From: a virus
Taxonomy: Duplodnaviria; Caudoviricetes
Strand: one strand, 5' to 3'
Length of the DNA stretch: 25,638 nucleotides
IMG/VR virus record: IMGVR_UViG_3300005662_000208
Location: 1 to 25,638 of that record
Under the pieces are notes generated by a model. The model was given only the letters and a program-made list of their open reading frames with translations, did not search any database and had not been told where the DNA came from. This document shows, piece by piece, positions 24,247 to 25,638 of the stretch (positions within the stretch are counted from its first letter, which is position 1; every line of letters begins with the position of its first letter). A program made the position numbers and the translations under genes.

Positions 24247-24275
24247 ATCATACTCTATTATGTATGTCTTGTCAA
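24247..24275 (-). promoter_or_regulatory. Sigma70-type (early) promoter TTGACA-N17-TATGAT
   Basis: -35 TTGACA at 24275-24270, 17-bp spacer, -10 TATGAT at 24252-24247, 24 nt upstream of the glycosyltransferase ATG. Confidence 0.88.
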
Positions 24276-24446
24276 TTATTCTTTCTCAGAGAGAATTACT
24301 TCATTACCTTCCACTGAAAATCGAATTTGAGTGTCTTCGTACCACTCTAATTCATTCATAATTTGCTCTGGAATTTTGATATAATAGTCTCCACTAATTG
24401 GATCAACCTCTATGGATTCAAAAATATCTGCGGATTTTTTTTTCAT
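24276..24446 (-). CDS. AbrB/MazE/SpoVT-like DNA-binding protein (56 aa, not in ORF track)
   Basis: MKKKSADIFESIEVDPISGDYYIKIPEQIMNELEWYEDTQIRFSVEGNEVILSEKE. The IP..I...L.W.E...I.F.VEGN.VIL pattern matches the swapped-hairpin AbrB fold. Confidence 0.75.
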   Translation of the reverse strand: MKKKSADIFESIEVDPISGDYYIKIPEQIMNELEWYEDTQIRFSVEGNEVILSEKE

Positions 24447-24662
24447 TTTCGTATCTATAAAACCTTATTTTATTTTTATATAGCGAAAAAAATATTTTTA
24501 ATATTCAACAATGCTTATTATATTCTCTCTCTTTTTTTGTAAATCCTTATGAGATATAAAAATTGTTCCGGAATTTTTTTATTTAATGGTATTATATTTA
24601 CTTGCCTTCCGTAACACTTTGTAGGTTAGGGTAGTTATGCGTTTTTATACGCGCCCGCGCCA

Positions 24663-24745
24663 CGATGAACGCCACCGCGATGAACTGCCAAACACGAACG
24701 AACGAACTGCCCCCCACGAACGAACGCAGGGGGCAGGGGGAGGGG
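24663..24745. repeat. Low-complexity repeat patch at the end of the GC-rich array
   Basis: cgatgaac x2 (24663, 24678); (acga)n runs at 24694-24707 and 24716-24726; gaactgcc x2; G-runs at 24729-24745. Confidence 0.7.
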
Positions 24746-24943
24746 TCACCCCTGCTGAGAGCGCCACCCGCTGATGGGGCAACGGGCAACGTCGGCAGCG
24801 TGTGCCTCAGCGAACTGGGCAGACCAGATGGTAGCGGGATGACCCACGGGGTCGGTGATGGCATTGAAGTTGCTGCCATCGTTGCGGTAGGCAACCCAGA
24901 CGGTCTGGCGATCACGAAGGCGGGTGGCAGGTGAGAGGCGCAT
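24746..24943 (-). CDS. 65-aa hypothetical early protein (cassette 3)
   Basis: MRLSPATRLRDRQTVWVAYRNDGSNFNAITDPVGHPATIWSAQFAEAHAADVARCPISGWRSQQG. Start reassigned to the CCGATG at 24943, which lies just downstream of the repeated promoter. Confidence 0.7.
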   Translation of the reverse strand: MRLSPATRLRDRQTVWVAYRNDGSNFNAITDPVGHPATIWSAQFAEAHAADVARCPISGWRSQQG

Positions 24944-24954
24944 CGGAGGGGTGT

Positions 24955-25002
24955 GAACTGAGAGAATTGTAGCACGGATCGGGGGGCACGACGGCACCCC
25001 CC
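24955..25002 (-). promoter_or_regulatory. Repeated promoter/leader unit, copy C (extended -10 TGCTACAAT plus upstream GC stem-loop)
   Basis: 24955-24983 is identical over 29 bp to 25509-25537. Hairpin GGGGGGTGC-CGTC-GTGCCCCCC lies at 25002-24981. Confidence 0.8.
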
Positions 25003-25011
25003 ACGAACGGA

Positions 25012-25236
25012 TCAGAGCGGGTTCGCCAGATCCAGGAAGCGATTGACGAACCAACCCAGACCAGTGCCAGGGACCAGGACGCGGGCGATGTCGCGGCGGC
25101 GGATGCGATGGGCAGACTCGTGCCCGCTCTGCCAGTCAACGAAGGCAACGCCCGCCAGCGGGAAGATCTCCAGGGCGGCAACCGCAACGGAGGGGCGGCG
25201 GATGGTGAAGGACAGGTCGGTGATGGGGTTGAGCAT
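25012..25236 (-). CDS. 74-aa small early protein, KTSC-like (cassette 2)
   Basis: MLNPITDLSFTIRRPSVAVAALEIFPLAGVAFVDWQSGHESAHRIRRRDIARVLVPGTGLGWFVNRFLDLANPL. The S.AV..L...P..G.A.V.W..G...RR.I...LG.FVN pattern resembles small cyanophage early proteins and the KTSC domain. Start reassigned to the CCGATG at 25236. Confidence 0.65.
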   Translation of the reverse strand: MLNPITDLSFTIRRPSVAVAALEIFPLAGVAFVDWQSGHESAHRIRRRDIARVLVPGTGLGWFVNRFLDLANPL

Positions 25237-25251
25237 CGGTCGGTGTCGGTT

Positions 25252-25273
25252 GAACTGAGAGAATCCTACCACG
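25252..25273 (-). promoter_or_regulatory. Repeated promoter/leader unit, copy B (extended -10 TGGTAGGAT)
   Basis: Minus strand CGTGGTAGGATTCTCTCAGTTC matches copies A and C at 19/22 positions and directly abuts the hicA stop codon. Confidence 0.72.
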
Positions 25274-25498
25274 TCAGGCGGCGGATTTGGCGGCGATCAG
25301 CAGGGCGTGGAACTTGTGGAATTCGTGAGTCATCCCAGGGGAGAGAGTCGGGCGTCCCTTGCTACCGTGCGCCGGTAGGTGGAAGGTCTGGGAGGTCGCG
25401 GGGTGGGTCACTTTGTCGTGACTGCCACCTGGTTTGATCGACGCGCCTGCCTTTAGGATCAGGCGGCGGGCGTCGCGGACTTTGATCGGAGATGCCAT
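25274..25498 (-). CDS. hicA: HicA-family mRNA interferase-like protein (74 aa; cassette 1)
   Basis: K.RDARRLILKAG....GGSHDKVTHP.....HLPAH.....LSPG: catalytic GSH, then HP, P.H and L..G with the spacing of the dsRBD-fold HicA family. Confidence 0.8.
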   Translation of the reverse strand: MASPIKVRDARRLILKAGASIKPGGSHDKVTHPATSQTFHLPAHGSKGRPTLSPGMTHEFHKFHALLIAAKSAA

Positions 25499-25508
25499 CG
25501 GATCGGTG

Positions 25509-25552
25509 GAACTGAGAGAATTGTAGCACGGATCGGGTGGGGGTCACCCCTG
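25509..25552 (-). promoter_or_regulatory. Repeated promoter/leader unit, copy A (GTGACC-N16-TACAAT with extended TG and a GGGG-TGA-CCCC mini-hairpin)
   Basis: Minus strand CAGGGGTGACCCCCACCCGATCCGTGCTACAATTCTCTCAGTTC, with 29 bp identical to copy C. Confidence 0.8.
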
Positions 25553-25636
25553 GCAAGGGTGCAGAGGGTTTACCACGTCAAACAACCCGAAGCGTCCTCC
25601 ACAGCAGACGTACCCCTCAAAAACCCAATCCGTCGC
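25544..25636 (-). CDS. 3' end of a further cassette gene (partial)
   Basis: Open frame ...ATDWVFEGYVCCGGRFGLFDVVNPLHPCQG* ends in CAGGGGTGA, the same 3' end as cassette 3. The frame choice is inferred. Confidence 0.45.
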   Translation of the reverse strand, partial: ATDWVFEGYVCCGGRFGLFDVVNPLHPCQG

Positions 25637-25638
25637 CT

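Follow-up and report, generated by a model that had tools for sequence, protein, structure and literature searches.

The right-hand tip of this cyanophage genome fragment carries a GC-rich array of small genes, each placed behind its own repeat of a hairpin, a -10 box and a leader, which is likely to be an early promoter, and whole units are probably gained, lost and replaced there, the likely route being homologous recombination. The repeat is coupled one-to-one to open reading frames, indels among relatives are unit-sized and end in the repeat module, and a second allele is present in the phage's own population.

The window, meaning the whole stretch that was analysed, is an entire contig of 25,638 nt. 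It derives from a T4-like freshwater cyanophage of the Kyanoviridae, with gene order as in S-SRM01 and P-SSM2, and the sequencing runs holding most of it are freshwater metagenomes. Its right end codes for proteins of 3566 aa and 638 aa in the gp7 and gp6 baseplate positions, these names being given by synteny with S-SRM01. They share the minus strand with genes for a baseplate wedge subunit, for S-adenosylmethionine decarboxylase and for small PHROG families. A near-consensus sigma-70 promoter (11/12) lies at 24247-24275 (minus strand) ahead of a 252-aa phrog_1574 gene, and differs in class from the array repeat. The GC content is about 30% up to position 24,600 and about 62% in the last 1 kb; taken per 100 nt, it is 20-22% over 24401-24600 and 53-71% beyond. 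The features of this end are as follows.

24276..24578, minus strand: first core gene (phrog_661) and a strongly AT-rich spacer, both lying beyond the array
24579..24662, minus strand: junction element, single-copy and non-coding, at the GC-to-AT step
24663..24745, minus strand: array tail, which lacks a U-tract and holds a 12-bp hairpin (24736-24707) together with CGTTC repeats and a TCGTG..CAG box
24746..24943, minus strand: gene C (65 aa), without a family in Pfam or PHROG
24944..25011, minus strand: repeat module C, with a G6...C6 hairpin (25002-24981), TG and a TACAAT -10, predicted +1 at 24959
25012..25236, minus strand: gene B (74 aa), in the functionally uncharacterised family phrog_7365
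25237..25273, minus strand: repeat module B, beginning right at the gene A stop, with TG and a TAGGAT -10, predicted +1 at 25256
25274..25498, minus strand: gene A, 74 aa, solo HicA-like protein
25499..25552, minus strand: repeat module A, with a hairpin, a weak -35-like GTGACC, TG and a TACAAT -10 (25525-25520), predicted +1 at 25513 and a C/A-rich leader
25544..25638, minus strand: putative partial fourth gene, a 30-codon open frame ending in TGA

The compositional step extends to codon usage, with GC3 values of 0.72-0.84 for genes A to C versus 0.13-0.28 for six core genes. Matching of codons is insufficient on its own to account for the high GC of the array, because its intergenic DNA (GC 0.64) is as GC-rich as its genes. 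In long related loci the GC content falls over several kb going away from the junction element. Upstream of the junction in L003, L010, L012, L016, L064 and L081 it declines gradually, being about 63% at the junction and about 40% at a distance of 7-8 kb, while promoter-led genes keep a GC3 near 0.7 all along.

Within the window the repeat ATTCTCTCAGTTC occurs three times, always on the minus strand (starts at 25521, 25264 and 24967), with no other copy in the 25,638 nt. The first-pass annotation of this DNA had described a shared repeat before each complete gene, and copies A and C are indeed identical over 29 nt, with copy B matching at 19/22; the CCGATG at all three gene starts and the 13-mers shared by gene ends (24742 and 25540; 24710 and 24997) also lie where it had placed them. 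The longest word present three times in the last 1 kb has 13 nt, as against 6-10 nt in 500 block-shuffles. Each of the three genes begins 15-20 nt after the start predicted from the -10 and TCTCAGTTC repeat.

Related loci were collected with an exact 20-mer query, which hit viral contigs in 78 stretches (on 74 differently named contigs), and through the flanking core gene, which gave 80 further loci. Locus L161 equals the window plus 3 nt, is otherwise identical and was not counted as support; the same search word as for L161 returned 0 viral contigs. In 226 distinct TCTCAGTTC contexts a TAnnnT hexamer lies 7 nt ahead of the A (T 0.96, A 0.93, T 0.93), and the first ATG falls mostly 15-24 nt past this A. 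The -10 is sigma-70-like, being TACAAT or TAGGAT in the three window copies and TAnnnT in relatives, where TATACT, a form absent from the search word, accounts for 82/306 copies. An extended -10 had been proposed earlier, and the TG extension is present in all three window copies, but in only 130/306 related ones, counts of TG and TACAAT in relatives being inflated by their presence in the 20-mer and the related loci being non-independent. A palindromic TG[GT]CAC box stands 29-31 nt before the -10 in 107/306 related copies and before none of the window's three. TG and box are nearly exclusive of each other (TG in 118, box in 95 and both in 12 of 306), and within the final kb ahead of the junction the TG type, to which those of the window belong, makes up 39 of 53 copies, against 3 with the box.

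A -35 at a spacing of 16-18 nt scores 4/6 in the window only for copy A, and among relatives it defines a minority class, with at least 4/6 in 70/306 copies (about 21 expected from shuffles) and 5/6 in 31/306 (1.9 expected). A GGG..CCC pair is found in 201/306 related copies and a hairpin z below -2 in 86/306; in the window z is -2.2 for module C and -2.5 for module B, whose hairpin overlaps the -10, and module A is not above shuffles. No intrinsic-terminator-like site occurs in the window array, and a T-run follows in 13/306 related copies. The region from -70 to -14 has 64% GC, that is, no AT-rich tract, and the leaders are 85% A+C, with a Shine-Dalgarno-like word (GGAG, GAGG or AGGA) in 17/241. 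The most conserved letters, TCTCAGTTC, lie across the predicted +1. On this anatomy a promoter role for the repeat is likely. The TCGTG..CAG box of the array tail recurs in 58/69 relatives.

Coupling of repeat and gene is close among the relatives. Matrix hits gave 315 distinct repeat copies, 307 of which are followed within 10-35 nt by an ATG reading frame of at least 35 aa, as compared with 779/4020 random array positions (19%). The 519 promoter-led frames fall into 71 families, with a median length of 62 aa. Between close loci (at least 94% identity) we found 26 events, some of them the same event in different pairs, and 21 change the length; 7 of the 74 distinct indel ends lie inside reading frames, though at least 59% of the array DNA is coding. 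Fifteen of the 26 events, picked for gene gain or loss, were aligned. Most of the aligned insertions span from one module to the next, and short alleles carry hybrid modules in which the left flank of one copy is joined to the right leader of the next. At best the exact overlap over the -10 in these hybrids is 25, 18 or 10 nt, several events have one of just 0-3 nt, and the joints scatter from about -48 to +17 around the predicted +1. Crossover within the repeat is likely rather than proven, since selection against broken genes also gives intergenic ends.

In 52 non-nested maps the HicA-like family occurs in 7 and that of gene B in 7, with varied neighbours, and that of gene C in 40. The majority order held in 1454/1655 pair observations (88%, versus 64% when shuffled), and 134/222 pairs were never reversed, some others being found both ways round. 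Order is mostly conserved, and therefore gain, loss and replacement dominate; of the modular behaviour ascribed to the array earlier, these are found at the repeat, and reordering has less behind it. The idea of cassettes has a precedent, and it rests on comparison of the putative units between genomes. Two tandem units of family F2, each with its own promoter, occur in L091, L094, L095 and L142 and are likely to have arisen by unit duplication.

Cultured phages carry the same kind of array. S-PM2 has 11 promoter-gene units of 50-60% GC (L164:21554-24802) in the same genome place as the window array, and 9 of the 11 match families of the lake contigs, including those of genes B and C, with the family of C last. 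Only 3 of these 11 frames are annotated in AJ630128, the other 8 being unannotated, and one annotated array frame matches a PHROG anti-restriction family; p071 and p074, annotated on the minus strand within the array, look spurious. Repeat-bounded indels, which the first-pass annotation had recommended looking for, are present among relatives, and they include a 197-nt unit that S-CAM7 isolate 0910SB42 carries and isolate 0910CC49 lacks, with the hairpin-promoter repeat at its bounds and flanks about 99% identical. The S-CAM7 arrays (L170:6335, L171:6136-6331) have the same architecture with a different leader, ATACCAAAC, and the isolates also differ by gene replacements. S-SRM01 has two repeat copies; an unannotated short frame inside its array (L001:12543 onward) resembles gene C by eye and adjoins an HNH endonuclease gene on the opposite strand. 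Syn9 has no copy of the repeat and S-RIM8 none in the array region, so that the repeat is not a universal feature; both phages show little GC step. The matrix found none in Syn1 or in two S-RIM44 regions and two scattered matches in S-CAM1. The TG[GT]CAC box is present in P-SSM2, Syn9 and S-SRM01 (it was also noted in L001, L002 and L163-L165).

Contigs assembled from sequencing runs gave a view of this phage's own population. The array continues past the window's edge, as had been predicted, with a further 31-nt repeat copy past 25638 in each of runs X2 and X11, and the joints at which contigs of these two runs seemed to go back are read as that copy. In run X3 two sequences adjoin the gene C unit (depth 203) on its upstream side: A+B at 132 and a different one at 104. 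Together they account for the depth of the upstream contig, 236; here the alleles are linked by graph adjacency and depth sums. In run X11, from another study, gene C and this other sequence are joined in one contig at depth 3.8, and the second allele departs exactly at the gene B stop codon, 5' of the hairpin, and not at the -10. A different gene replaces B ahead of C in this phage's population. Its product has no peptide match among the related loci, and L162, the sole IMG/VR match, was dropped as an unrelated chance match. Another X11 contig, with B after an A-like promoter without the HicA-like gene, is a hint only, at depth 2 and with 6 mismatches.

The depth in run X3 is about 40-55 in the core and 132-236 in the array, and over 24693-25638 it exceeds the depth of the neighbouring core contig by a factor of 2.4-4.3. 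This step fits GC bias, terminal redundancy and shared cassettes alike, and the contig break at 24693-24722 may reflect a second backbone that shares gene C. RNA run X12 gave two short unrelated matches only, and it and the other low-share runs provide no evidence on expression or habitat.

We envisage that unmodified host RNA polymerase would read the repeat as an early promoter, starting at the A of AGTTC, 7 nt past the -10, within minutes of infection. Cyanomyoviruses lack alt, modA and modB, and early expression via the unmodified host polymerase has been proposed for them (PMC3152331). The C/A-rich leader would allow initiation free of a Shine-Dalgarno sequence, and the high GC3 would fit the host tRNAs before phage tRNAs exist. 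The phage's homologous recombination would cross over in the 10-45 nt of shared module, and the solo HicA-like protein may be an RNase that aids host mRNA shut-off.

Several other readings of the array were weighed. The repeat could be a promoter only, kept alike by selection or gene conversion, with genes moving non-homologously and broken ones being purged. The events with nearly no exact overlap at the joint speak for this, as do the divergence of the second allele at the B stop codon and the mostly conserved unit order; we nevertheless hold it to be unlikely, given the hybrid modules with overlaps of 10-25 nt and the clean repeat-bounded 197-nt indel between cultured S-CAM7 isolates. A good deal less probable is that the module serves, not as a promoter, but as a leader for RNA processing or translation, cutting a long early transcript into single-gene messages. 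It would account for TCTCAGTTC straddling the predicted +1, for hairpins without U-tracts and for the lack of a -35 in most copies, but TAnnnT stands at the canonical -12 to -7 spacing, and TG and box are near-exclusive upstream aids, as expected of promoter classes.

A site-specific system resembling an integron, in which a dedicated recombinase inserts cassettes at the repeat, would explain the unit-sized cassettes, the conserved hairpins and the fixed boundary element. It is very improbable in view of the spread of the joints relative to the predicted +1 and of the result of a Pfam search at E 0.01, in which none of 69 array family representatives proved to be a recombinase. An assembly chimera, or foreign DNA joined to a phage contig, as the origin of the GC-rich end is suggested by the abruptness of the step close to the contig end and by the higher X3 depth on its GC side; it can hardly be credited, as contigs of runs X1 and X2, both possibly the window's own source, cross the step with 0 differences, and the same step recurs in many relatives (median GC 65% before and 28% after the junction element, 69 distinct copies) and in cultured S-PM2 and S-CAM7. 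Recombining promoter-gene units are the reading that we prefer.

A conserved element in single copy, overlooked in the first-pass annotation, forms the boundary of the array. It comprises an A-tract, a core at 24630-24619 and a conserved G and T further on, and is present in 65/160 loci. A 46-nt query matched 325 places in 324 phage records (E up to 10), of which 316 belong to cyanophages or marine viruses; the remaining 8 are from Streptomyces phages and probably matched by chance. Among the 60 matches listed, 58 have no annotated feature beneath the element (one of the 58 being an unannotated record), and a 19-nt core is exactly common to many. A structured RNA is not favoured because covariation in 56 junction copies gave no covarying helix, just one pair with a 3-nt loop. 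Rfam at gathering thresholds gave 0 matches for the window and four loci, and this, together with the spacing of the A-tracts and the covariation result, suggests that the element is a DNA site; the candidates are a pac site, an origin or a DNA-binding site of another sort.

We found no description of the element in the literature searched, which included few subscription papers, and no terminus result in the part of PMC9146016 covered. In S-PM2, reads are reported to be 2-3 times denser just past the downstream side of the ORFanage, which has been taken as terminal redundancy (text of PMC4503421). Tentatively, and with more doubt than confidence, we suggest that the element could be a family-wide packaging-initiation (pac) site or replication origin of T4-like cyanophages, and the array the terminally redundant or first-replicated genome end. 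The array would then be a recombination hot spot, which would explain why GC declines with distance from the element and why read depth is raised; its repeats would provide a standing testing ground for new host-takeover genes, and the physical genome map of the family would be fixed.

The gene identities proposed earlier were upheld in part: there are three small genes and A is HicA-like, albeit below the cut-off, while the KTSC character of B is at most a weak resemblance. Gene A matches PF07927 with E 9.5e-5 and 22.9 bits, under the curated cut-off of 27, and the 'toxin' family phrog_18430 with E 1e-19; 19/22 members of its family match PF07927 at E < 0.01 and 0/22 match NCBIfam at E 0.01. 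The Gly/His hairpin motif of HicA has a catalytic role. As in HicA of the HicAB type II toxin-antitoxin systems, this motif is kept in gene A, with Gly24 and His27 invariant across 22/22 aligned relatives. Unlike HicA, gene A falls under the curated cut-off, is a mobile solo unit (7/52 maps) and has no partner found, with no HicB match among the 69 array family representatives nor in B or C, the gene upstream of A being incomplete. Profile search found no HicA structure for gene A. A gene of S-RIM8 in the same genome sector is 55% identical to it.

Gene B has no match to Pfam KTSC (PF13619), and 2/13 distant relatives scanned match under the cut-off (E 0.0046 and 0.1). Its predicted structure, with a pLDDT of 58 alone and 49 with 14 sequences, is too poor for fold search; in the ESM Atlas gene B had no usable match and gene C reached scores of at most 0.80. 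Gene C has at least 100 relatives and is the commonest unit of related arrays, usually the last, terminating 18/40 junction-anchored maps. It belongs to the same family as S-PM2p242, linked through other family members, and tblastn of gene C itself against cultured phages gave no match. The part of a fourth gene claimed earlier is present as the 30-codon open frame, its stop placed in the loop of a GGGG-TGA-CCCC mini-hairpin, but it has no homolog among the related loci. Overall, 6/69 array family representatives match Pfam at E 0.01.

The picocyanobacteria that are the main producers in lakes and seas fall victim to T4-like cyanophages. To our knowledge, hardly any of the earliest genes of these phages are known, and often they lack annotation. 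With a repeat marking each unit, such genes can be called and counted directly, and S-PM2 and S-CAM7, being cultured, are ready models for the promoter, for unit loss and for the boundary element. The repeat would also offer a mechanism for fast gene turnover in a group where, for the adjoining region of S-PM2, shuffling of the promoter-stem-loop (PeSL) type had been considered unlikely (text of PMC4503421).

Among known systems, the array shares with integrons the unit-sized cassettes, conserved hairpins and fixed boundary element, and differs from them in its scattered joints and in having no recombinase among the array families. An early-gene regulatory element of Syn9 and P-TIM40, and the early promoters of the group, were reportedly described by Doron et al. 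(2016), and we know of no proposal of a recombination role for that element. It reportedly lies in the same genome region, upstream of gp25, and we would guess that the TG[GT]CAC box is this element; the window's three copies, unlike those bearing the box, use TG instead. The early promoters of Doron et al. may cover part of the repeat motif. Their motif is not given in the parts covered of PMC9964418, PMC5780444, PMC6359870, PMC6708340, PMC5082946 and PMC5313236.

PeSL cassettes are known from the T4-like phages RB49/phi1, T4/PST and KVP40/nt-1 (PMC2839356 and PMC4122927). The passages of these covered here report none from cyanophages, and we found no paper on such arrays in cyanophages in the literature searched. 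The analogy with PeSLs drawn in the first-pass annotation stands as regards modularity: in both, modules of hairpin and promoter with GGGG...CCCC stems are repeated between small ORFans of a variable region, and unit indels have their joints inside the module. Unlike the AT-rich PeSLs, the window array is GC-rich, is mostly without a good -35 and has neither a Shine-Dalgarno sequence nor a U-tract, its conserved letters straddle the predicted start, and it forms one dense co-oriented block running up to a fixed element in phages of another host group. Since three defining features, the -35, the AT-rich tract and the Shine-Dalgarno sequence, fail, the array is PeSL-like rather than a canonical member. 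It also resembles the S-PM2 ORFanage, a set of small unknown genes with shuffled neighbourhoods, freshwater-enriched and in the same genome sector, in which the density of PeSLs was judged too low by its authors (text of PMC4503421); unlike the ORFanage, the S-PM2 array described here is a dense series of 11 units situated 6 kb further on (21.5-24.8 kb).
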